Shown piece by piece: positions 2,646 to 14,319 of a stretch of DNA of 32,000 nucleotides. Numbering within the stretch: the stretch's first letter is position 1; each line of letters begins with the position of its first letter. Source of the DNA: Candidatus Heimdallarchaeota archaeon (lineage in GTDB: Archaea; Asgardarchaeota; Heimdallarchaeia; JABLTI01); assembly GCA_030614005.1 (NCBI GenBank), contig JAUWKS010000002.1, positions 137,888 to 169,887 of the forward strand. Reading direction: 5' to 3'. Below the pieces are notes generated by a model that was not told the DNA's origin, did not search any database, and saw only the letters and a program-made list of their open reading frames with translations. Both the position numbers and the translations under genes were made by a program.

Positions 2646-3027
2646 TCAAGCGGATTGCAGAAGGAGGAAATACAGTAAAAGTGGGAAACCAACACCAAAA
2701 GCAAGTAGGGATGCAAATGAAACAAAATATTTCACCCATTTCTTTGTTACTGTTCTTACATATCCGGCCGATCTTCTCGAGATAGAATATTTCCTAAATT
2801 GCCAATTTGTTAAAGGTGTTACCGGTGGATCATATTTCTTTCCTTGTGGTTTTTCTGTAATGCTTAGTAAATGATTCCAAGTTTTCACTTGTAAAATACA
2901 TCGATACTCTTCAAATGGGCTATAACCAAGTTCTTGGTCCTTCGTTTTGTTGTAGTATTTTTCCCCTTTCTTTTCTATTTCTGTGAATTCATGTCCGGGA
3001 GCTTCTATTGTTGACCGTTCCTTTTTT
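2646..3027 (-). pseudogene. 3' half of the host membrane-protein gene interrupted by the 3028-14168 element
   Basis: The frame of the 80-aa track ORF (2646-2888) stays open upstream to the TIR (KKERSTIEAPGHEFTEIEKKGEKYYNKTKDQELGYSPFEEYRCILQVKTW...). It has no ATG there and ends in a C-terminal TM helix. Confidence 0.75.
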
Positions 3028-3045
3028 TATGGACAAATAGGACAT
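3028..3045 (+). repeat. Left terminal inverted repeat TATGGACAAATAGGACAT
   Basis: Exact reverse complement of 14151-14168; contains GGACA twice, 9 bp apart. Confidence 0.9.
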
Positions 3046-3165
3046 TTATCCATCACCAGTCACCACAACAAGTCCAGAGGATTTGTTGCAGCTCATCTCT
3101 GAGCCCCCACTAGGAATAGTTGAGTGGAGGGTTCCCGAGTCCATGTAGGGCACGGGGCTAGTGTC
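3046..3165 (-). ncRNA. Candidate TnpB omegaRNA/reRNA scaffold overlapping the tnpB 3' end
   Basis: Three consecutive hairpins on the minus strand: CCUCCACU/AGUGGGGG (8 bp with a G-U pair), GCUCA-GAGA-UGAGC (GNRA loop), CAACAA-A-UCC-UCU-GGA-C-UUGUUG. The G-U pair and GNRA loop favour the minus strand. This is the known position of TnpB omegaRNAs. Ends are approximate. Confidence 0.65.
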
Positions 3166-4686
3166 TTTAAGACTTTTAATTTTAACATAATCTATGAAGC
3201 TTGCACGATAAATGTTCACAGAAGCATTATAGTCTCTGTCTGCAGTGAAACCGCATTCGGGGCAGTGGAAGAAGCGACCACATTTGTTCTCTAACAGATT
3301 GTTTGGTCCTTTCACTTTCAAGCCTTTTGCGCTGCATCTTGAGCAGTGACTGGAAGTATTCCAAGGACAAACTTTCACAAGTGTTAGCCCTTTTTGTCGG
3401 CACTTGTAGTCTAGGAGGAAGACTATTCTTCCTCTTAGCCAGTAGCTTAATTTTCTTGACCAGGATCTCTTTCCACGAGGAGGTTTGTAATCTCGCAGGT
3501 CTTCGATAGCGATTTTTGTGCACTGCCATTTTTGGGCAATTTCTATGAGCTTGTTTGTTGTATAATGAGCCAATTCTTCTCCTAAGCGATTTCTTTTTTG
3601 GTAGAGCTTGCTTCTCTCTTCTTCTCTTCGAGCGACTTTTATTTGCTTGCTTGGTCTTTTCTTTTTCTGCTTGGATAGTTGTCGTTGTATGCCGGCAATA
3701 TGCCCATATAGTCTTTCTATGTGCCTGTATTGTCCACCGATCATATTGATGAAAATTGGCTTGGAAATTTGTTTTCCATCCTCACAAACCACACATGTAG
3801 CCACTTTTTTCAAACCAGGATCTACTGCAAGCACTCGCTCTTTTCCTTCTTTTGGTATCGTTTCTCCTGGGTATTCCCATGGAAACTGTAAGAAGAAGTA
3901 TTCGAGCCCTGCTTTCAAGTTCTTGGTTCGCAAAGTAGGTTTTAATGGTTGAGGATATATTGCTTGTGCGATTTTTTCTTCTATTTTTTCGGGCACGAAC
4001 AGTGTTTGTTCTATCCAAACCCAATCGCTTCTCTTTTTTGGTTCCAAACTTGTTGGTAGCTTTATCTCTAGATTGATGGTTTGTTTTTCTACAGTATATT
4101 TTATTGCTTGGTCATCATCTGGTGCGTAAGGGAAAGTGTATCGTTTTATTTTTGGTTTCACAAAGTCTGTGTAAATGAAATTAGAAAATGCCTCTCCGAG
4201 TCTTTGGTGCAAATTCTTTATCATTTCTATTGTTTGCTCGATCATGACTTTCTTGTATCGGTAGTAAGTTTTTTCACCATTCTTTGCGGTATTTCTGCAG
4301 TGCTGTCTTACCACTGAAACCAATTTTTGTTCTGTTGTTTGTATCCCTAACCACTCGACTATTTGGATGCAATCATAGTAACAGCTCATGCGCTTATGTT
4401 GTCCTCTAATTATTCGTCCTACCCATTCTGTTACTCCTCTTAGTACCCTGGAGGGAAGATATACTCCTTCTGTTTTCGCTTGTGCTTCGTTGATTGCTTT
4501 GTATGCATTGAGTTTGCTTTCACCTATCCTTGTTATCCATTCTTCTGACCATATTTTATCGAGGAGGTCTTGAGCAGTTTTTGTCGTTAACTCTTTGAAC
4601 CAGTTTAATCTTTCATCTTGTGTCATTTTGAATTGGTAGCTATTGATTGGATTATTTTTGTTTCTCTTTTTCTTGTTGGAGGACAT
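3046..4686 (-). CDS. tnpB: TnpB/Cas12f-like RNA-guided endonuclease (IS200/IS605 OrfB family), 546 aa
   Basis: RuvC-I VLAVDPG (D289), RuvC-II IAIEDL (E395), Zn finger CSRC...CPEC, RuvC-III ADRDYNAS (D485). All three catalytic acidic residues are present. Confidence 0.92.
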   Translation of the reverse strand: MSSNKKKRNKNNPINSYQFKMTQDERLNWFKELTTKTAQDLLDKIWSEEWITRIGESKLNAYKAINEAQAKTEGVYLPSRVLRGVTEWVGRIIRGQHKRMSCYYDCIQIVEWLGIQTTEQKLVSVVRQHCRNTAKNGEKTYYRYKKVMIEQTIEMIKNLHQRLGEAFSNFIYTDFVKPKIKRYTFPYAPDDDQAIKYTVEKQTINLEIKLPTSLEPKKRSDWVWIEQTLFVPEKIEEKIAQAIYPQPLKPTLRTKNLKAGLEYFFLQFPWEYPGETIPKEGKERVLAVDPGLKKVATCVVCEDGKQISKPIFINMIGGQYRHIERLYGHIAGIQRQLSKQKKKRPSKQIKVARREEERSKLYQKRNRLGEELAHYTTNKLIEIAQKWQCTKIAIEDLRDYKPPRGKRSWSRKLSYWLRGRIVFLLDYKCRQKGLTLVKVCPWNTSSHCSRCSAKGLKVKGPNNLLENKCGRFFHCPECGFTADRDYNASVNIYRASFIDYVKIKSLKDTSPVPYMDSGTLHSTIPSGGSEMSCNKSSGLVVVTGDG

Positions 4687-4857
4687 TTTTTCTTCGCGTT
4701 TACTGTTGTTTAGCTAGATATAATTAAATTCTCTAAGGAGATTACCGAAAGTATTAGAGATTTGTTTAAAAGAATAGTTGAACGAATAGCTAAACGTACA
4801 GCTTTTCTAAGAGGTATTTAATAAAGGAAGTGGGAATAACCTTCTAGGAGAACAGCT

Positions 4858-6486
4858 ATGCAAGACTTTCTCAATTGGCGAACGGATCCATTACTAGTGG
4901 ATATTGAACCTGCCAGACCTAACCAATGGTTCACAGCAAATGAGTTAATAGAGGGAGATAGAAGAGATTCATTCATAACACCGGAAAATCAATTGCTTCT
5001 TTATCCAATCATGATCCGAAAAAACGATTTCATAACCGGGGAACGAATCTTGCAATCGTTTCCATATATTCTATTAGACACTAGAATAATTTCCAAATGT
5101 CGTAAACAATCTCTTGCATTAGCAGAAAAAACCCATTATTATTTTCAAGGCTCTAATTATAATCATTCTATTCGTGATTGGCAGAAAAAGTTCATCAGTT
5201 ATTTAGAAGAACAACAACGCCTGCCTTTTCCTCTATTTCGACTTTATGATGATTGGTTAGATTATATAAAAGAGAAAAAATTTGCTCGATTCCAATCTGC
5301 TCGAGGAGAGAATTTTCAATTACCACTTTATCTTTCCGAGGACTTGGCTTATCTTTCCGGTGTGGTTATGGGTGATGGTCATCTGGCGGAATATTTTGTT
5401 AATATCATTGATTCTTCAAAAGAGCACATTCTAAATTTAAAAGAAAAGCTTGAAGAGCAATTCAATTCCAAAACGGAATTTTTCAAACAACCAAACGCTA
5501 AAGCTTGGAATGTCAATATTCTAGGTAAATGGATCGTTCGCTTCTTTAACTTTATTTTATCACAACCAATTAAAGAGAGAAAATATCCTGCTCTTAGAGA
5601 ACCATTTATTTTTCGAGAGAATGAGTATTTTCGCAGTAGGTTTTGGTCAGGATTGATGGATGCAGATGGTACCTATAAAAGAGTTATTGGATTTAGTTCT
5701 GCATCCAAACAACTTCGATCTGACTTTTCTAATTACTTAGATGAAAACAATATAAAACATCGATTTTATGAGTATAGTGTTTTTGGTGGAACTACTTTTA
5801 GTATAACTATTGCAGGTCATTCAAGAAAGCCATTTGCTCAACAAATAGGTTCAAATCATCCAGATAAACAACAAGAACTGCAGTTACTATTACAGAAAAA
5901 AGTCTATCGATTTTCACCTCGAATTACTACTCTCAGAAAAAAAAACTCATGGAACGAGCAAGTTCAAGACTTTTCTAAAGATGCAATCCTTGATGGTTTT
6001 TTTAATCTTTCATTAATTACCACTCTACAAATTTTAGATTTAGGTAGTGATATAAAATCACTGCGAAAAAAGCACAAGGAAAAACAAAAAGAATTAGCTT
6101 CATATTTAGAGATTACCCCTAGTTTACTTTCAAAATATGAATTAAATAAAACAGCACTTCCAATTTATATTCTTAAAAAGATACTTTCAAAATACAATGT
6201 TTCATTTAATCACTTTTTTTCTCAATTAAGTAATTTAATTTTCCGTTCTACAAGTTCTAGTTGTCAGTTTCCATTAAAACCAGAAGAAAGGTTATTGACT
6301 TTAATTAGAGGATTACAAATTATGCCAGAAAATTATTTTCGAGTTATAGGATTGAGAGAAGTGTCAATTGAACATTATAAGAAAGAAATTAGTGATTATT
6401 TTAAAATTAATGAACCTATAACAGATGTTTTTCATAACGCTTGTTTAGTTGAATTGATTCGATCATTTTGCTTAATCCGAAATTAA
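4858..6486 (+). CDS. Stand-alone double-motif LAGLIDADG (DOD/intein-type) endonuclease with a C-terminal XRE-type HTH
   Basis: Motifs LAYLSGVVMGDGHL (~5344-5385) and FWSGLMDADGTY (~5641-5676). HTH IKSLRKKHKEKQKELASYLEITPSLLSKYELNK (~6055-6150). RBS AGGAGA upstream. No intein splicing termini recognised. Confidence 0.85.
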   Translation: MQDFLNWRTDPLLVDIEPARPNQWFTANELIEGDRRDSFITPENQLLLYPIMIRKNDFITGERILQSFPYILLDTRIISKCRKQSLALAEKTHYYFQGSNYNHSIRDWQKKFISYLEEQQRLPFPLFRLYDDWLDYIKEKKFARFQSARGENFQLPLYLSEDLAYLSGVVMGDGHLAEYFVNIIDSSKEHILNLKEKLEEQFNSKTEFFKQPNAKAWNVNILGKWIVRFFNFILSQPIKERKYPALREPFIFRENEYFRSRFWSGLMDADGTYKRVIGFSSASKQLRSDFSNYLDENNIKHRFYEYSVFGGTTFSITIAGHSRKPFAQQIGSNHPDKQQELQLLLQKKVYRFSPRITTLRKKNSWNEQVQDFSKDAILDGFFNLSLITTLQILDLGSDIKSLRKKHKEKQKELASYLEITPSLLSKYELNKTALPIYILKKILSKYNVSFNHFFSQLSNLIFRSTSSSCQFPLKPEERLLTLIRGLQIMPENYFRVIGLREVSIEHYKKEISDYFKINEPITDVFHNACLVELIRSFCLIRN

Positions 6487-6524
6487 AGTAATGTTTTGAT
6501 TCTAGACAAAAAAAAGTTAATAAT

Positions 6525-6593
6525 TCGCACTTTGGGGTGCGTTCGCATCGACGCTACTCATCGCTTACAGCGATTCCTCACGCGTCAGAGCGA
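6525..6593. other. GC-rich multi-hairpin intergenic segment (candidate ncRNA or cis element)
   Basis: About 58% GC by hand count, in AT-rich surroundings. Stems CGCAC/GTGCG (6526-6541), ATCGCT/AGCGAT (6560-6574), enclosing GACGC/GCGTC (6550-6586) and TCGC/GCGA. Confidence 0.5.
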
Positions 6594-6806
6594 TTTTCTA
6601 TTAGTTTTTTGTATAAAAAAGTCAAAAGTTTTGAAATACAGCTAATCAGAAAGGAATGTCATTATTTTTGACGTTTATAAATGAAATAGATTTTTGGGCT
6701 TTTTTAGTCATTTTTAAAGAAAATTGGCTAGTGTTTAATAGTTAAGGGTTAAATTTCAGGAAATTAGCAAAAAAGACTGAAAAAAGTGTTAAAATGAGGT
6801 TTTTCT

Positions 6807-9800
6807 ATGAGTAAAGCTGTTTCTTCCACAAAAAAACTTCCTCTTTGTCTTTCTATGGGTGTGACAGAGGTGCTAGAAGGAAGGGAGAGCATAACAGGTA
6901 AAGACCTTCTAGATTATTTTTCTTTACAGGATAAAACATCTTTTCTTACTAACACGAAAAATTTTGTTCTTGTTTGTGGAAATAAACAGAGACCAAATGA
7001 CTATGAGCCTAACAAATTCCTCGGCTCTTTTGGTGTTCGAAGAGCACTAGCAATGAAGAATTACACTCGATTGCCTGTAATTATTGTTACCAATAACCGT
7101 TTTGAAACTTCTATGCTTATTGAGCAGTTTAATAAACTAACTTCTTGTTTCAAACTATACACATCAAAGAAAAGTCAAAGAGAAAATATTAATGAAGAAA
7201 TTAAAGCGGACTACCCGAATGAAGCAGACTTTATACTGACAACATATAGCTCTTTCTGGGATCAAACAACAAACAAGGATGATCCATCTTCAGAACAAAT
7301 TATCTTAATCAATCCATTAAGACTAAAATATATCATCGAGGATGTAGGCAAATTAGATGTCATTTTTGGCTGTATACATAGGCATAAGCGAATAAGACCG
7401 AATTATTCCTTCATTCTTGATGAAGCACACTACCCAATTCTATCAAAGAAAGATTATCAATTCTTATTTAAAGCAGGCAATAGTCTTTTCTTTAGATGCA
7501 AAGAGAGAATGCTTTTAGAATATAATAATCCATTCAGAGAAGCTATTTCTCACCTAACTAGTGATCAATTCCAGCTATTTATTTTCACAGATCTTTTTAG
7601 GGGAAGAAAACTGATAAAAGAACTGGTTAAAGAGTTCAAATCAACTTTTACTTATAAAATGTACCTCTACAGTAATGGTATTTTTCCAACAATTGATGAA
7701 AAATTGCCTTCAAAAGAACTTCTTAAAGAAAAGAATAGGCTTGATAAGAAAGTTTTAAGTGGAATTGTAAAACAAATACATTTATTCACAAAAGGAAGCA
7801 ACACCAAAACGATAACAGGAAAAGTAACTTACAGCGATTTTGATTTTAACGTTGGCCTCAGTAAACAAGAGATATCTCGAACGTATTCCTGGGATAAACC
7901 AAAAGAAGCAGCAAGATTCCTTCCGGTAGTCACTAAGGAAGAAGGAAGATTCAAACTTAGCGCTCTAGGAGAAGAAATATTTGGTGTGTCATCATGGTTT
8001 AGTGGTGTTGAGGACAATTTTAGCGAACTTTTAGCTCACTTTTCTAGGATCCTTTACAAAAACAAGAAGGAAAACCACAAATTTTCCGTGAAAGAGATAA
8101 TCATTTTTTATCTTCAAATGATAGATTGCAATTATGAAACAGTGAAAAGATTTGAGGAGGCAATTCCTGAAAAGTTAGACACAGAAAAAAAGAATGACCA
8201 AATGATCGCAATCCTTGAAAAGAAATTCAAGCCACTAGTTAAAAATTTCAAAAGAGTTTCAGCAAAAAAAATCCTTGGTGCTTTTGAAAAATTAATGAAT
8301 ACTGAAGCATACATTTTCTATCAACAATTCAAGAATTATAAGAAAGAAGAGAAACGTTCCTGGGAAGAGAGAAGGAGAAAAGCGGTCCTAAGAAAAGCAA
8401 ATTATCAGCCCTTAGCTGTGAAATTCACAGGTGATTATTATCACATGTTTTGGCAAGACGCCAAGAAGTTATTGGAAGAATTAGTTGAAGAAGGGCGACT
8501 TGTCAGGATTATTTCTTACAATGGTAGAGGAAAACCGATACTAAAGTACCTTACTCAAGAATTACTGGATGCGAACCCTCATTTCCAAAAGAATTGCGGG
8601 AACTGTCAATGGTACAATCAACGCTTCAAAACATGCACCTTTTTACGTTTAAAACAAGCGAAAAACCCGAGTACAATGACAAAAGAAGAATTTGAATATG
8701 CTAATGATACACTAAGATTTGAAGCAACTGCTTGTGAGAAGTACATAGAAAAAGATGATTTTCAGTCGATGGAAGGCAATGTTAAGTTCACTGCTACCGT
8801 TGAGAAGTTAACTAAAGATATGAAGAATATATCAATGAGCTTTTTATCAGGAGATATTGCAGAGTACAAGTATCATTGTCTTTCTTGCCAGGAACAAATA
8901 GAAGAATTTGGTACAGGTGATAGAATCTTCTTTCCAAGGAGAAGAATTATTTGTCCTAACTGTTCGACAGTTTATCTTCAACTAAAAGATCGGAAAAAAG
9001 TAAAAGTGAAAATGGAGGAAAGAGATCATCAAAGAAGCTTATACTTCAAAGAAACTGGGACCATTACTGACGTTTTGAGGAAGAAAGATTCTGCTCGTGT
9101 TTTTGTCATACATGACATAGATAGTGCTAGATTAAGAATCAACGAAGAAAATGATGAGCCACCTTATTTTCTAGTGATAGGTAAAAATGAAATAGCTCTG
9201 GATTTGGTGCAGTTTGTCTATTTTTCAGGTATACGTCATCAAGAATTAGAAGAAACAATGTGGTTACTAGCGGACCTTGATTCTGAAAGATACAAATACA
9301 AAATTAAGCGAACAGAACAAAAGTCAAAGAAGAAAAAAGCAAAAAGTCGATATAAAAGACCCTTTTCAGCTGAAGACTATTCCAATATCATAAAAATAAT
9401 CAAAAAAAGCTCCGATAAAGAAATATTCAACCATCAATTTTTGGAAGCAAGGCTTATCTCAAATATTGCTGGAATGTTATCAATAAAATATGAAATAGAA
9501 ATGGAAAGCTTCTCTGACTGGCATTACAATCACCAATTGTTGGAAATGGTTGATTTGCATATGAAAGTAATTGGCGGAGAAGTAAAGTCAAGCTATTATG
9601 GAACTCAATTAGAAGCACTTAGCAACAAGCACTTTTTTGACTTTTTGAAGGGAGAAGCTGCGAGAGTAGGTCTCTGGTCAAAAGGGCGAGTGAATAGCAG
9701 GCTAGTGATAGATATGCTTAAATCCTTCAGCCAAAAGGTTAGTAGTGCTTTTTCACCTTTAGATGCTTTACTGAATCAAATGTTGCGCTCATTCAGAGTA

Positions 9801-10985
9801 GAATTAGATCCGTTGTTTCACAGGATGGGCATGGATCCTGCAATGTTAGGTCCAGGTTTGTTTCATAGACGAAAAACAAAATCTGATATTGACCAGCTAG
9901 GTTTTTACTTCGACTTAATAGAAGCTGTGCGAGTTCTAGTGCTTGTAACTATTGTTAAAGCTATTCGAGATGGCACCCTCGGTTTTGATGATTGTAAATA
10001 CGTACTAGGTGAGGATGGACAAGAGATCTATCAAGTGAAAGGTTCTTCCCTGGATAAATTCACCAATCTGGTTTCAGAAGCTCTTGAACAAACCGTTTCA
10101 CATCAAGGGCAAAGAATGACTTTTAAACAAGCTTTTGAATTCAATCTTTTGTGCTTAAGAGTTGCTTTTGAAAAATGTCTTTCAGAGATAGAAGAACATA
10201 AACAAATTACTTTGAAAAAAATCAAGAAGTGTTTTGATGATTCACTTTTTATTTCATTTACTTTCTGCCCTGAAGGACTAGAAGAGAAGTTAATAGATTT
10301 AAATCGATTTGCAAGTAAAGAAGGAGTAATTTTCTTTGGAAAAGAACAAGAAGTTTTGGAACGAAAAGAAACAAGAGAAAAATATAGAAAAGAAGTAAAG
10401 AGTCATTGGTACAACGAAAATGTGATTAAAAAGCTAAATGCTTTTCGGTTGACCAAACATCAAATTAAAGAGCAAGATAGAAGTTTGCTTGTTATTTTGT
10501 TGTTATTGTACAATACTTTTGAAAGAGATTTTACAATTGATGAATACTCAACTAATCATTTTAAGGAATTACTTGGAATAACTCAAAACCAAGTACAGAG
10601 ATTACTTGATCAAATGGTTTCCAGTGGATTGCTTCTTCGAGAGAAAGTAAATAGAAAGAATTTCTACGAGTTAAATCTTAAAAATCTAAATGTTAAGGAC
10701 TTTCGTTTTCTTCTTGGAGTAAATCTCTCTTTAGAGGAACATCTTCAAAGAGAGTTTATCATCAATATTCCTCCTCATTTAGAGCGAGTTGAAAAGATTA
10801 TTTCTCAAATCAAATTGCTTCCTACTAATCAACAAAAAGTCATAAGAAGTAATTTTTGGTTTGATTGGGAACCAACAGAAATTATTCGAAGAGTAATTGT
10901 TTGGGCAGAAGAGAAAGCTGTAACTAGTAAAGCATTTTTCAAAATGATAGGTGATATTCATGGTAAAAAGCAGTTACATTTTTAA
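6807..10985 (+). CDS. cas1: Giant multidomain Cas1-like integrase (casposase-like): degenerate SF2-helicase-like domain, Zn fingers, Cas1, wHTH; 1392 aa
   Basis: Cas1 beta-domain pattern from ~aa 763 (RVFVIHD...IALDLVQFVYFSG). Helical domain with LEA (E936), SPLDALLNQM, MGMDPAMLGPGLFH (H1020), LGFYFDLIEAVR (D1036/E1039). wHTH ~aa 1245-1291. N-terminal VIIVTNNR, FILTTYSSF, ILDEAH (D205). Cys motifs CGNC (597), CLSC (691), CPNC (716). Confidence 0.8.
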   Translation: MSKAVSSTKKLPLCLSMGVTEVLEGRESITGKDLLDYFSLQDKTSFLTNTKNFVLVCGNKQRPNDYEPNKFLGSFGVRRALAMKNYTRLPVIIVTNNRFETSMLIEQFNKLTSCFKLYTSKKSQRENINEEIKADYPNEADFILTTYSSFWDQTTNKDDPSSEQIILINPLRLKYIIEDVGKLDVIFGCIHRHKRIRPNYSFILDEAHYPILSKKDYQFLFKAGNSLFFRCKERMLLEYNNPFREAISHLTSDQFQLFIFTDLFRGRKLIKELVKEFKSTFTYKMYLYSNGIFPTIDEKLPSKELLKEKNRLDKKVLSGIVKQIHLFTKGSNTKTITGKVTYSDFDFNVGLSKQEISRTYSWDKPKEAARFLPVVTKEEGRFKLSALGEEIFGVSSWFSGVEDNFSELLAHFSRILYKNKKENHKFSVKEIIIFYLQMIDCNYETVKRFEEAIPEKLDTEKKNDQMIAILEKKFKPLVKNFKRVSAKKILGAFEKLMNTEAYIFYQQFKNYKKEEKRSWEERRRKAVLRKANYQPLAVKFTGDYYHMFWQDAKKLLEELVEEGRLVRIISYNGRGKPILKYLTQELLDANPHFQKNCGNCQWYNQRFKTCTFLRLKQAKNPSTMTKEEFEYANDTLRFEATACEKYIEKDDFQSMEGNVKFTATVEKLTKDMKNISMSFLSGDIAEYKYHCLSCQEQIEEFGTGDRIFFPRRRIICPNCSTVYLQLKDRKKVKVKMEERDHQRSLYFKETGTITDVLRKKDSARVFVIHDIDSARLRINEENDEPPYFLVIGKNEIALDLVQFVYFSGIRHQELEETMWLLADLDSERYKYKIKRTEQKSKKKKAKSRYKRPFSAEDYSNIIKIIKKSSDKEIFNHQFLEARLISNIAGMLSIKYEIEMESFSDWHYNHQLLEMVDLHMKVIGGEVKSSYYGTQLEALSNKHFFDFLKGEAARVGLWSKGRVNSRLVIDMLKSFSQKVSSAFSPLDALLNQMLRSFRVELDPLFHRMGMDPAMLGPGLFHRRKTKSDIDQLGFYFDLIEAVRVLVLVTIVKAIRDGTLGFDDCKYVLGEDGQEIYQVKGSSLDKFTNLVSEALEQTVSHQGQRMTFKQAFEFNLLCLRVAFEKCLSEIEEHKQITLKKIKKCFDDSLFISFTFCPEGLEEKLIDLNRFASKEGVIFFGKEQEVLERKETREKYRKEVKSHWYNENVIKKLNAFRLTKHQIKEQDRSLLVILLLLYNTFERDFTIDEYSTNHFKELLGITQNQVQRLLDQMVSSGLLLREKVNRKNFYELNLKNLNVKDFRFLLGVNLSLEEHLQREFIINIPPHLERVEKIISQIKLLPTNQQKVIRSNFWFDWEPTEIIRRVIVWAEEKAVTSKAFFKMIGDIHGKKQLHF

Positions 10986-13900
10986 CAAGAAAGAAATCTT
11001 CCCGATTAATCCTGGTAAACCCCGAAAATGGATCACTATTCATAACCTTCCTGCTACTGAACCAAGGAAAATAACTGGTCTCACATGGCAAGAAGTACTA
11101 CCTGGTTATGCTCAAGCTTTAGCAGAAGTGATCGAAGAAATAACTGGTAGTAAGAACCCCTATGAGCACCAAGAACAAGCAATAAAGCATTTATTGAATA
11201 ATTCTGCTAATAAGAAATGCCTGGACCTCATAATTAAAGGTGGAACTTATTCAGGAAAATCACTATCTTTCATCGTTCCTGGTATCATCAAGCAAATAAA
11301 TGAGGAAACGGATTTTACAGTCATTTTTTACCCTTCGAAACAATTACTCCTAGACCAATTTGAAAGAGTGAAAGAGTATTTGGTGAAATTCGAGGAAAAA
11401 ACAGGCATCAGATTAATTTGTGAAAAGTACAGTGGAGATACTGGAAATACTAATTACTCTAAAGGGGTAGCTCGTGTAAATGATCAAGAGCTGAATAATT
11501 TAGAACAGAACCCGCCGAATGTCTTGCTTGCCACTTTTGACAAATTTTGGCATCATTATGAGAGTGGGAACAGCAGTCCGTTAATAAAGAAAATAGCATC
11601 TGCAAATTATCTTGTTTTTGATGAGATACATGCATTTGACGGTTACGCTGCAGGTAACATTAAGGGCTTTATTGCTATTCACAAGAAAGCTAATCCTCAG
11701 GGGCAATTTATACTTTCCTCTGCTACTATAGCTAATGTTGAAGGATTCAGAGACGATTTCTTGCCTAATGCTAAAATAATTACTTGCCCACCAGTGAGAG
11801 GAGAACAAGTGTATGTTGGCACAACAATTGAACACACAGTTTCACTGCTTGCAGATTTCTGGAAAGAAATGGAAAAAATGCCAGGAAAAACCGGTCTTGT
11901 TTTCCTTGATTCGAAAGAAAACATCGAATTATTAACAGACCTACTCTGTAGGAAACTCAAGCAGGATGACCCTTTCTTTGATCCTGACACTGTGCAGATG
12001 ATCCACGCAGATTTGGAATATTATCATCGTAAAAGAGTGCAAGATGAGCTTCGAAAAGGAAATAGAAATATTATTAGAATTCTCATCTCTTCCTCAGTCT
12101 TGGAGCTTGGTGTAAATATCCCTAACATTCAAACAGTATTTAATATTGGCATTCCGATAACACAGAAAGATGGTATTATTCAAAGGATGGCTCGCAATCG
12201 CTCTGTTCCCGGTGAAAGAAGAACGAATGTTTTTCTGTTCGACCTTTCTAAGAAACGTGACAGTTTTTACTGGAACAATAAGGAAATCCTCAAGGACATT
12301 CTTGAAACGAATGCTTGTAACCCTATTCTTTATCCCAAACTTAACCCGAAGATATTGGCGGGGCAAATTATCTTGCACCTTAGATACGGTATTAATGACT
12401 TTGGAGAGATAATGCAATTCTTCCTTGATCAAGGACCACAAGTTTATCGCTTAGCAAGACAACAATACACTAAACTTGTTAGTTTAAATGTCCTGAAAAA
12501 AAGCAGCGATGGTAAAGTTCTCTTCACAAGCCAAGGAGAAAAAAAGCTAAAAGTGCAAGCAAAAAAGAAAAATCATCTTGTTCCGTTCTCCATACGAGCT
12601 ATTAAAAATAATTGGTCTATTAAGAAAAAATTTGGAGAAAGTTCTTACTGGCATGAAAATAGAAAATCTAGTCTTGGTAAGATCTCTACCAAGGATGTTT
12701 TAAAGAAAGGATTGCCTGACAATATTATTACTCGTAACAAAAAACAGTATCTTGTTACGGATAAAGATCAGCAATTAAGAACTATTTACGTTAAAGAATT
12801 ACTTTCTAAAGAAAAAAGTGCTGGAAATTTTTCCGGAATAACTAATCGTTTACTTGACCCTCAGATAACTCCTGGTGTTTTCTCTAAGAAAGTTAAAGGA
12901 ACAAAAATAGTTGACATTAGTTTTGGTCAAGTTTCAATTAAGCAACAACCTTTAGCTATTGTTAACTCTAATCCCGAAAAAATTAGTTCTAATAATACTC
13001 ATGTAAAGGATAACAAGAACTTTTTTTGGCAAGAATTAACCCCAAAACGCTCGGAAGAATTGGCTAATACTGAAAAGTCAGATGGATTAGCCATTACATT
13101 AACTTCTGATATTCCAAAACCAAAAGAACTTACAACTAAGAAATTACTAGAATATTTTGGGCGCGTCCTACAAGTTGAGATTGAAACCGTTCTTTCAATT
13201 CCAGGTAGTGAATTCGCACTTGCGATTAATACTAATCAATTAGCAATTTATGATAAAGGAGACCCAAATGGAAACTCAGAGTATTTGTTTAGTCATTTAC
13301 AAAAAGTCGCTGCTCGAACGCTCAAAAGATTGACAGATTGTTCTTGTGAAAATGGTTGCAAAAATTGTTATGGTGAAATTCTTGGCTTATTTCCTAAAGG
13401 AGTAAAAGAATCACTAAAAATACTTTTCAAGGATTTAACGCTGATTTCTGAAGTGGAGTTTGATGATGAATTGTTGCATGAAATCAATCCTGAGCAAATG
13501 AATTTCAAAGAAAACAGAATTATTGCTTTTTCAGATATTCATCTTACAAACAAGCTTTGTTTCCAGGAAGAATTTTTCGAAGCGCTCAAAGAGCAGAGTA
13601 AACAAGCTGATATTATCATCATCAATGGTGATTTATTAGATACTATTTCAGAAGATAGTTATCAGGCTTTTAGTGAATTCAAAAGCATGGCTATACGTGA
13701 AGGTTTTTGGTCGAAACTAGTTCTGATACGCAGTTCTTCTATTCATGACGGCAATCTTGAGCAATTCACAGGTTTCCTCCATCAAGATTATGTTGAAGTT
13801 GAGATCGGTTCTGAACAAGTATTATTCGTCCACGGAAATAGGATCGGCATAAATCCTAGTTTAGTAGATAAAACAAGTATAGGAAAAGCTGTCTTTGAAG

Positions 13901-14127
13901 CAAAAAAGGCTTTAATAAAGCCGGGCAAGATTTGGCTTCCTGTTATTCTCCCTGAAACTCATCTTGTTATTGGCCATGTTCATCTCCGATTTTATAATGA
14001 ACGCTTTCGAGTTTATGGTTCTGGTCACTGGACAAAAAAAGGTGACCCTTACAATCAACGATGCATGATAATTCTTGACCCTAATTCTTTAGATGTGCCA
14101 AAAATCGTTTCATTTGATAACTATTAG
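10951..14127 (+). CDS. DEAD/DEAH-box (YprA/Hrq1/SftH-like) helicase + DUF1998 Zn domain + calcineurin-like metallophosphoesterase
   Basis: Q motif PYEHQEQA, Walker A GGTYSGKS, YPSKQLLLDQ, DEIH, SAT, SSVLELGVNI. DUF1998-type IYD..PNG...CSCENGCKNC. C-terminal SDIH, NGDLLD, FVHG, GHVH. Likely start is ATG 10960 after a GGTGA RBS, overlapping the cas1 stop. Confidence 0.88.
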   Translation: MIFMVKSSYIFNKKEIFPINPGKPRKWITIHNLPATEPRKITGLTWQEVLPGYAQALAEVIEEITGSKNPYEHQEQAIKHLLNNSANKKCLDLIIKGGTYSGKSLSFIVPGIIKQINEETDFTVIFYPSKQLLLDQFERVKEYLVKFEEKTGIRLICEKYSGDTGNTNYSKGVARVNDQELNNLEQNPPNVLLATFDKFWHHYESGNSSPLIKKIASANYLVFDEIHAFDGYAAGNIKGFIAIHKKANPQGQFILSSATIANVEGFRDDFLPNAKIITCPPVRGEQVYVGTTIEHTVSLLADFWKEMEKMPGKTGLVFLDSKENIELLTDLLCRKLKQDDPFFDPDTVQMIHADLEYYHRKRVQDELRKGNRNIIRILISSSVLELGVNIPNIQTVFNIGIPITQKDGIIQRMARNRSVPGERRTNVFLFDLSKKRDSFYWNNKEILKDILETNACNPILYPKLNPKILAGQIILHLRYGINDFGEIMQFFLDQGPQVYRLARQQYTKLVSLNVLKKSSDGKVLFTSQGEKKLKVQAKKKNHLVPFSIRAIKNNWSIKKKFGESSYWHENRKSSLGKISTKDVLKKGLPDNIITRNKKQYLVTDKDQQLRTIYVKELLSKEKSAGNFSGITNRLLDPQITPGVFSKKVKGTKIVDISFGQVSIKQQPLAIVNSNPEKISSNNTHVKDNKNFFWQELTPKRSEELANTEKSDGLAITLTSDIPKPKELTTKKLLEYFGRVLQVEIETVLSIPGSEFALAINTNQLAIYDKGDPNGNSEYLFSHLQKVAARTLKRLTDCSCENGCKNCYGEILGLFPKGVKESLKILFKDLTLISEVEFDDELLHEINPEQMNFKENRIIAFSDIHLTNKLCFQEEFFEALKEQSKQADIIIINGDLLDTISEDSYQAFSEFKSMAIREGFWSKLVLIRSSSIHDGNLEQFTGFLHQDYVEVEIGSEQVLFVHGNRIGINPSLVDKTSIGKAVFEAKKALIKPGKIWLPVILPETHLVIGHVHLRFYNERFRVYGSGHWTKKGDPYNQRCMIILDPNSLDVPKIVSFDNY

Positions 14128-14150
14128 TAACTTTTTTTCACATTTATCTT

Positions 14151-14168
14151 ATGTCCTATTTGTCCATA
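14151..14168 (+). repeat. Right terminal inverted repeat ATGTCCTATTTGTCCATA
   Basis: Exact reverse complement of 3028-3045. Confidence 0.9.
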
Positions 14169-14319
14169 TTTTGTGGCAACAGTTGACACCCTTAATTATA
14201 TCACTTGTTTTCAGAACAGAATAATTTCTTCGTTCCATACCTGTTAATTTCAAGCCGGTTAGAAAAGCAATTAACCCTAGAGTAGGTCCGATGAACACAA
14301 TAATAGCTATTACATTCAT
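14169..14319 (-). pseudogene. 5' half of the host membrane-protein gene interrupted by the element
   Basis: MNVIAIIVFIGPTLGLIAFLTGLK...KGVNCCHK (ATG 14319, N-terminal TM helix) reads into the TIR (IWTNRT) and stops at 14149, just inside the element. Confidence 0.72.

Follow-up and report, generated by a model that had tools for sequence, protein, structure and literature searches.

The 32,000-nucleotide (nt) stretch of Candidatus Heimdallarchaeota DNA analysed here, referred to as the window, carries a tnpB gene which appears to form the right end of an 11.2-kb transposon that also encodes a LAGLIDADG-helix-turn-helix (HTH) protein (orfA), a Cas1-fold fusion protein (orfB) and a helicase-phosphoesterase (orfC). 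The window lies within contig C9 of a genome (G000) of 3.62 Mb in 126 contigs, with a G+C content of 33.5% and a completeness of 90%. The tnpB gene, the ends of the element and the guide RNA (omegaRNA) predicted from them, together with a candidate target-adjacent motif (TAM), are as follows, in window coordinates.

3046 to 4686, minus strand: tnpB, 546 amino acids, stop included, with RuvC residues D289/E395/D485 and a CCCC zinc finger (Pfam, PDB matches, alignment).
3014 to 14187, no strand: whole mobile unit, 11,174 bp; same architecture and both ends in G010:C17, with a clean empty site in G000:C99.
14151 to 14187, minus strand: left end, 19 outer nt GTCAACTGTTGCCACAAAA plus an 18-mer (23 aligned left-end copies, breakpoint of a deletion allele).
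14188 to 14192, minus strand: AGGGT, pentamer of target origin just outside the left end, on its 5' side; candidate TAM (RGGRY; empty sites, relatives, left-end junctions).
3028 to 3045, plus strand: 18-bp inverted repeat, right-end copy; subterminal, within the scaffold.
3014 to 3027, minus strand: right-end terminal 14 nt, AAAAAAGGAACGGT; conservation ends after the last T.
3014 to 3173, minus strand: predicted omegaRNA scaffold, about 160 nt (covariation, RNAalifold, single-sequence fold).
3173 to 3163, minus strand: stem 1.
3156 to 3134, minus strand: stem 2.
3129 to 3105, minus strand: stem 3.
3102 to 3056, minus strand: stem 4.
3053 to 3031, minus strand: stem 5, the end of the open reading frame (ORF) paired with the 3' half of the 18-mer.
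3112 to 3120, minus strand: 5' strand of the pseudoknot, the loop of stem 3; ACUAUUCCU in the window, ACUGUUCCU in most copies.
3022 to 3014, minus strand: 3' strand of the pseudoknot, AGGAACGGU, preceded by an A-rich linker.
2994 to 3013, minus strand: predicted guide, host flank, CAACAAUAGAAGCUCCCGGA; starts where all copies diverge.

The first-pass annotation of this DNA had proposed a catalytically intact TnpB without an accompanying tnpA, and both statements hold. The 546-residue protein matches the Pfam families Cas12f1-like_TNB (PF07282; E 1.3e-19, 70.6 bits against a cut-off of 26.3) and OrfB_IS605 (PF01385; E 1.3e-7, 32.3 bits against a cut-off of 30.5), and a sequence search against the PDB returned solved TnpB/Cas12f chains. 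Alignment with five homologues (44-67% identical) shows D289, E395 and D485 to be invariant, together with the zinc-finger cysteines C448/C451/C475/C478, all in the usual RuvC I/II/III and zinc-ribbon contexts; the equivalents in ISDra2 TnpB are D191/E278/D361 with a CCCC finger (PMC10097598). The protein thus has both the RuvC-like D-E-D triad and the zinc-ribbon TNB domain of a TnpB, and the catalytic residues are retained in homologues across 38-100% identity. Pfam searches of the whole 3.62-Mb, 90%-complete genome, element included, found no Y1 transposase (Y1_Tnp, PF01797), no serine recombinase (Resolvase, PF00239) and no Cas1 family, although the control genomes did match. Scans of the window with Rfam and for tRNAs and tandem repeats gave nothing relevant and no CRISPR array, and a profile search of the genome contigs with the TnpB alignment added no loci to those otherwise found.

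An 18-bp repeat beside the tnpB stop codon had also been reported, and the perfect 18-mer TATGGACAAATAGGACAT, which begins one base past the stop codon, is indeed present at 3028-3045 (plus strand) and 14151-14168 (minus strand), with 0.05 chance matches expected. About 25 copies occur in the genome, mostly less than 300 nt from contig ends, and thus belong to a repeat family that broke the assembly. When aligned in register the copies form two classes: on the tnpB side a further 14 nt outside the repeat (3014-3027) are common to all copies before they diverge, and on the other side about 24 nt are common. Some 20 non-identical right-end copies from four genomes of one genus (G000, G004, G005, G010) extend as far as AAAAAAGGAACGGT and then diverge, and the elements of 12 TnpB homologues of 38-50% identity, from the same genus and from another family of the class, likewise end and give way to unrelated sequence. 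Among these homologues and family copies the right-end terminus is GGAACGGT, GGAATGGT, GGTACGGT or AGAACGGT, with the consensus (G/A)GAA(C/T)GGT. The assignment of AAAAAAGGAACGGU to the host flank in the first-pass annotation was therefore wrong, as these 14 nt are conserved in every right-end copy and belong to the element. In some homologues the 18-mer is replaced (e.g., by GGAAUAAUUGUCCAU) or absent, the latter in a paralogous clade, here called the C63 type (TnpB 44-46% identical; L079:5697-16785 in G000:C63, L133 in G010:C6 and L137 in G004:C364), and yet the terminal GGAACGGU is kept; an inverted-repeat partner of the C63-type right end was looked for and not found. Read from these alignments, the 18-mer is subterminal, and the ends extend beyond it and are imperfect and asymmetric: they share the perfect 18-bp repeat and an imperfect extension, giving imperfect inverted repeats of about 33-37 bp.

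The hairpins that had been noted in the last ~120 nt of tnpB proved to be part of a covarying structure when the right ends of 21 copies, 175 nt each, were aligned. RNAalifold predicts 26 pairs, 15 of which show compensatory changes. With the pseudoknot included, 96.2% of cells pair, as opposed to 35-52% when the partners are slid by one to three columns (94.7-96.2% when pseudoknot and stem 5 are both added); changes on both sides are seen in 16-18 pairs (16 with the pseudoknot), and none of 500 shuffles reached the observed value on any of five covariation measures. Folded as a single sequence, the window copy has a predicted energy of -52.6 kcal/mol (z -2.6). The pseudoknot joins the final 9 nt to the loop of stem 3, approximately 100 nt upstream; it is 98.9% paired, hardly varies within the family and is retained in all 21 copies. 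A compensatory change is found in the C63-type clade, where ACYGUUCUU pairs with AAGAACGGU; elsewhere among the homologues the only differences are G.U wobbles or a bulge of one base. Stem 5 pairs AUGGAUAAA, the ORF end including the stop codon, with UUUGUCCAU, the 3' half of the 18-mer (88.9% paired). G.U pairs are frequent, e.g., U.G in 20 of the 21 sequences at one pseudoknot position, and since this would be A.C on the opposite strand the structure belongs to the tnpB-sense strand, as expected of a transcript. The hallmarks of an omegaRNA, i.e., a position over the tnpB 3' end and the right end and a guide-adjacent pseudoknot, are thus found by covariation, and the geometry can be compared with that of a solved example: counted from the first flank base, nucleotides -107 to -99 are predicted to pair with -9 to -1 here, and -105 to -103 pair with -5 to -3, just before the guide, in the ISDra2 omegaRNA (PMC10097598). 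By this comparison the predicted pseudoknot matches the solved one in placement.

There is the alternative that the conserved structure acts at the level of DNA, as the end recognized by a transposase, and that TnpB has no working guide RNA or one encoded elsewhere. The insertion signature described below is IS605-like (3' of a short motif, no duplication, asymmetric ends), and transposon ends are conserved in any case. However, when folded as DNA the ends form weak hairpins, the left end being no better than shuffles (z ~0), whereas the structure described above is 160 nt long, tolerates G.U but not A.C and includes a TnpB-type pseudoknot, and the TnpB residues needed for catalysis have all been kept over the whole range of homologues. 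We regard this alternative as improbable.

The sites at which the element inserts were determined from two occupied/empty pairs, three more comparisons of the right side and 23 left-end junctions. An 11.1-kb element of the same build (left end, orfC, orfB, orfA, tnpB, right end) is present in G010:C17, its proteins being 84, 78, 51 and 66% identical to those of the window in the order orfC, orfB, orfA, tnpB. Both of its flanks are adjacent in G000:C99, and the sequence of this empty site is gaattAGGGTtaactca; in the occupied site, gaattAGGGT is followed by the element (TGAAAC...GGAACGGT) and this in turn by taactca. In the second pair, a derivative of about 320 bp in G004:C70 is colinear with G000:C42, where AGGAT precedes the flank with no gap and no duplication. 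The pentamer is present once in both empty sites. For two further derivatives, compared on the right side, relatives carry AAGGT and (A)TGGAT at the pentamer position; in the third such comparison, made with the window itself, G010 has AGGGT there. The 23 left-end junctions mostly read AGGGC, AGGAC, AGGGT or GGGGT. The element therefore inserts directly 3' of a G-rich RGGRY pentamer, without target duplication. As the pentamer is target DNA and is not duplicated, an unoccupied site would read RGGRY followed by the guide match, and by the logic of IS200/IS605 TnpB re-cutting this makes RGGRY the candidate TAM.

Two other accounts of the junctions were considered and rejected. A search for a target duplication, covering both clean sites and the window, showed the junctions to share only GG/GGT, and the left pentamer varies (GGC, GAC, GGT) whilst the right is always GGT. 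A GG crossover core like that of IS607 would account for the G010 site, but the copies with AGGAC do not conform to it, and no serine recombinase was found. The three left-end copies with the junction pentamer AGGAC (L119, L120, L129) all have an internal T for C (CTGTTG, against CTGCTG in nine others); this co-occurrence may be due to chance, or element sequence may help to choose the target.

Whether tnpB belongs to the same transposon as the Cas1-fold gene has to be asked, as tnpB and the right end could be an independent IS1341-like passenger beside a Cas1 module. In the C63-type clade tnpB points the other way and stands upstream of orfA in the same direction; the right end faces orfA, the flanks differ by locus, and in C63 a tRNA gene lies between. 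The position of tnpB relative to the Cas1 module is therefore not fixed across the wider family, which is the kind of variability that the first-pass annotation had put forward as a sign of independent insertion. However, the order orfC-orfB-orfA-tnpB of the window type recurs at six loci from four genomes, no left end lies beside tnpB, and the whole 11.1 kb is present in G010:C17 against the clean empty site in G000:C99, so that at least the window-type 11-kb unit has moved whole. A passenger is thus quite improbable. As for the surroundings of other copies, a tRNA gene follows the right end in C63 and G008:C143, whilst that of G005:C53 borders directly on the interior of a tRNA-like sequence. 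A decayed element in G010:C6 (L133:2659-4807) retains a left end, after which come truncated pieces of orfC and orfA.

The guide comes directly after the pseudoknot strand in solved TnpB RNAs (PMC10097598), and in the present family conservation stops at that very point; the guide should therefore be the host flank from 3013 downward, CAACAAUAGAAGCUCC(CGGA). The first-pass annotation had offered two models. In the first, the repeat belongs to the scaffold and the host flank serves as guide, which agrees with what was found except that the guide would start 14 nt further out, at 3013 (CAACAAUAG...). The only perfect match of the predicted guide (2994-3013) in the genome is its own flank, and the same applies to each candidate guide, from the window and from the short derivatives.

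A different guide has been suspected in Asgard loci which pair TnpB with a diverged Cas1 homologue (aCas1-TnpB loci): Altae-Tran et al. 2023 (PMC10691335) report a hypervariable region before a conserved GTTCACTCA motif, and appear to regard this region as a possible guide. A guide carried inside the element in this manner would correspond to the segment of 0-24 nt between stop codon and repeat, which differs between subfamilies, and the GTTCACTCA motif stands at the 18-mer position in the distant homologues. However, the window copy and the C5/C50 type lack this segment altogether, four copies from separate insertion places (C124, C79, C117, C35) share one sequence in it, and it forms the loop of stem 5; we consider it very improbable as a guide. 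The second of the two earlier models, in which the 18-nt repeat itself is the guide and TnpB cuts the other copy and aids excision of the element, is hardly credible in spite of the repeat being perfect, guide-sized and complementary to the copy at 14151-14168, as the 18-mer is part of the conserved scaffold and pairs with the ORF end through its 3' half, the 14 conserved nt after it are the pseudoknot strand that is guide-adjacent in solved TnpB RNAs, homologues that have replaced or lost it keep the terminus, and some 25 genome copies would all become targets.

Taken together, we consider it probable that the tnpB at the right end of this element works in the usual selfish manner. The scaffold would be encoded by the last ~125 nt of tnpB and the 32 nt past the stop (18-mer, A-run, GGAACGGU), with five stems and the pseudoknot between its final 9 nt and the stem 3 loop. 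Transcription would continue into the host DNA, such that the flank from 3013 (CAACAAUAGAAGCUCC...) becomes the guide. With insertion 3' of RGGRY (AGGGT at 14192-14188 in the window) and no target duplication, a vacated or unoccupied site would consist of the pentamer plus the guide match and, if RGGRY is the TAM, would be a substrate of TnpB-omegaRNA; empty sites would be re-cut so that the element is copied back.

However, this explanation should be considered with caution, as several observations weigh against it. The window copy has an A at 3117 where the 20 other copies have G, creating one A.C mismatch in the pseudoknot, by which its RNA may be weakened. Most stems lie within coding sequence, and part of the conservation is protein constraint. 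The right end finishes in ACGGT, one base from the proposed TAM AGGGT, which puts the discrimination of occupied sites at issue; the TAM may be different from, or longer than, RGGRY. Finally, about 300 bp of the host gene is missing at the left end in the window, which is therefore not a simple insertion, and the TAM plus guide reproduces the ancestral site on the right side only. The interrupted gene, which encodes a membrane protein, is intact in G010:C17 and G007:C42, with ~300 bp more between the flanks. In the intact gene of G010, a genome of the same genus, AGGGT stands directly before the guide homologue CTACAATAGAAGCTCC, and the window left flank ends where G010 has ATGGA, another pentamer-like site (window 3013/14193 against L030:1196-1498). 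As relatives have the extra ~300 bp and both flank ends fall at pentamer-like sites, one of the window junctions would be secondary, which suggests an adjacent deletion after insertion, made by the transposase. The in-frame rejoining of the split host gene, taken as a simple insertion, is misleading, given what relatives hold between the flanks.

Further copies bear on mobility. Contigs from four sediment or cold-seep metagenomes cover the element. One contig (run X2, depth 2.8) joins 3020 to 14188 without the element, in the order left flank plus AGGGT, right-end remnant of 7 terminal nt (GAACGGT) and right flank; the left breakpoint of this deletion allele, 14187/14188, is exactly the left boundary derived from the alignments, and the contig may be an excision footprint. 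Another X2 contig has the same left end by a different flank, after GGGGT. These contigs provide weak population evidence of mobility. The genome itself contains protein-less derivatives of about 325 bp, represented by left ends at 15 places and right ends at 10. Each combines the left end with the omegaRNA scaffold, retains 49 codons of tnpB and has a flank of its own; over the left part they are 94-100% identical. Most stand at contig ends, e.g., L046 (C5:1-317) and L057 (C124:1-335), having broken the assembly.

The remaining genes of the element are the following.

4858 to 6486, plus strand: orfA, LAGLIDADG (I-DmoI-like, GDG/DADG intact) plus HTH_3; at least 13 paralogous loci in the genome.
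6807 to 10985, plus strand: orfB, 1392 amino acids, with a Cas1-fold domain at about 840-1180 and invariant E936, H1020, D1036 and E1039.
10951 to 14127, plus strand: orfC, a fusion of a superfamily 2 (SF2) helicase, MZB and a calcineurin-type phosphoesterase (Pfam).

That TnpB keeps company with a Cas1-type protein, as had been supposed, is borne out by structure. Residues 840-1180 of orfB, modelled with AlphaFold2 from 19 homologues (mean predicted local distance difference test score, pLDDT, 85.7), gave the casposase 6opm as the top Foldseek match (E 2.4e-7, template modelling score 0.55), and the top 50 matches were all Cas1. E936, H1020, D1036 and E1039 are invariant in the alignment. Only the fold search found Cas1: there was no Cas1 signal in Pfam at E up to 10 with orfB cut into five pieces, and a protein atlas search gave no usable match. 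The orfB protein may be the transposase, as has been inferred for the aCas1-TnpB loci (PMC10691335). The orfA protein has the fold of a two-domain LAGLIDADG nuclease resembling I-DmoI, in which the GDG/DADG motifs are intact, plus an HTH; its fold is not HUH. Its family comprises the window copy and at least 12 other G000 loci at 32-67% identity, catalytic motifs intact. The paralogues often adjoin tnpB or Cas1-fusion genes. No polymerase domain was found by Pfam in the four ORFs of the element.

The name aCas1 is reportedly taken from Makarova et al. 2020. The setting itself, aCas1-TnpB in Asgard archaea, is already catalogued and computationally predicted, with the TnpB groups Cas1H-Asgard-1 and -2 (Altae-Tran et al., 2023; PMC10691335). 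As in those loci, TnpB of an Asgard genome here adjoins a highly diverged Cas1 homologue, recognized by its fold, with repeats flanking the locus and a WhiA/meganuclease-like gene and a helicase nearby. Ends, RNA fold, TAM and insertion signature are not given in that paper, which suggests that the hypervariable stretch after tnpB may be the guide; here the guide is instead assigned to the DNA beyond the element, past GGAACGGU, and that stretch is interpreted as the loop of a hairpin. Whilst TnpB and its omegaRNA are arranged in the canonical way, the new contributions are the precise ends, the pseudoknotted RNA fold, the guide position, the candidate TAM, the duplication-free insertion and the ~325-bp derivatives. 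The resemblance to ISDra2 (PMC10097598) extends to an omegaRNA that overlaps the right end as well as the 3' end of tnpB, a guide taken from the flank, and a pseudoknot between the nucleotides just 5' of the guide and a loop ~100 nt upstream.

Among known transposons, IS200/IS605 elements have a Y1 (HUH) TnpA, insert 3' of a tetra- or pentanucleotide and end in subterminal single-stranded DNA hairpins, without inverted repeats. The present element likewise inserts 3' of a short motif without target duplication, and its protein-less derivatives keep the ends. It differs in that searches of the element and of the 90%-complete genome detected no Y1 TnpA, in having imperfect inverted repeats of ~33-37 bp in place of strong DNA hairpins, and in its size of 11 kb, its Cas1-fold, LAGLIDADG and helicase genes, its 546-residue TnpB and its G-rich candidate TAM. 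An IS605-type mechanism is not supported, as the ends form weak hairpins when taken as single-stranded DNA; nor is there, by the absence of a PF00239 match in the genome, the serine recombinase TnpA of IS607. Casposons encode a Cas1-family integrase and a family B DNA polymerase (PolB) and create a target duplication of ~14-15 bp. The element shares with them a Cas1-family protein by fold (best structural match, casposase), inverted-repeat ends and an archaeal host, but its ORFs contain no PolB domain, its Cas1 domain is buried in a 1392-residue fusion, it carries TnpB, and no 14-15-bp target duplication is seen at the two clean sites (G010:C17/G000:C99 and G004:C70/G000:C42). The Aloposons (Wu et al., 2022), with giant genes and integration into tRNA genes, do not fit the present element.

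A bolder proposal, which we put forward only tentatively and regard as unlikely, is that a Cas1-fold integrase, helped by the LAGLIDADG nuclease and the helicase-phosphoesterase, has replaced Y1 TnpA in an IS200/IS605-like transposon which retains motif insertion and TnpB homing, its derivatives spreading scaffolds with new flank guides.

For the aCas1-bearing family, the results would settle the guide as lying outside the element, right after GGAACGGU, and not in the repeat or in the variable stretch after the stop codon, and they provide a concrete RNA (scaffold of ~160 nt plus flank) and a candidate TAM, RGGRY, ready for a cleavage assay. Insertion beside a short motif without duplication would not have been expected of a Cas1-type integrase, and has implications for the partnership of Cas1 with the ancestor of Cas12. 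If the bolder proposal is true, the element would represent a natural case, outside CRISPR, of a Cas1 integrase paired with a Cas12 ancestor, with a Cas1 chemistry that leaves no target duplication.

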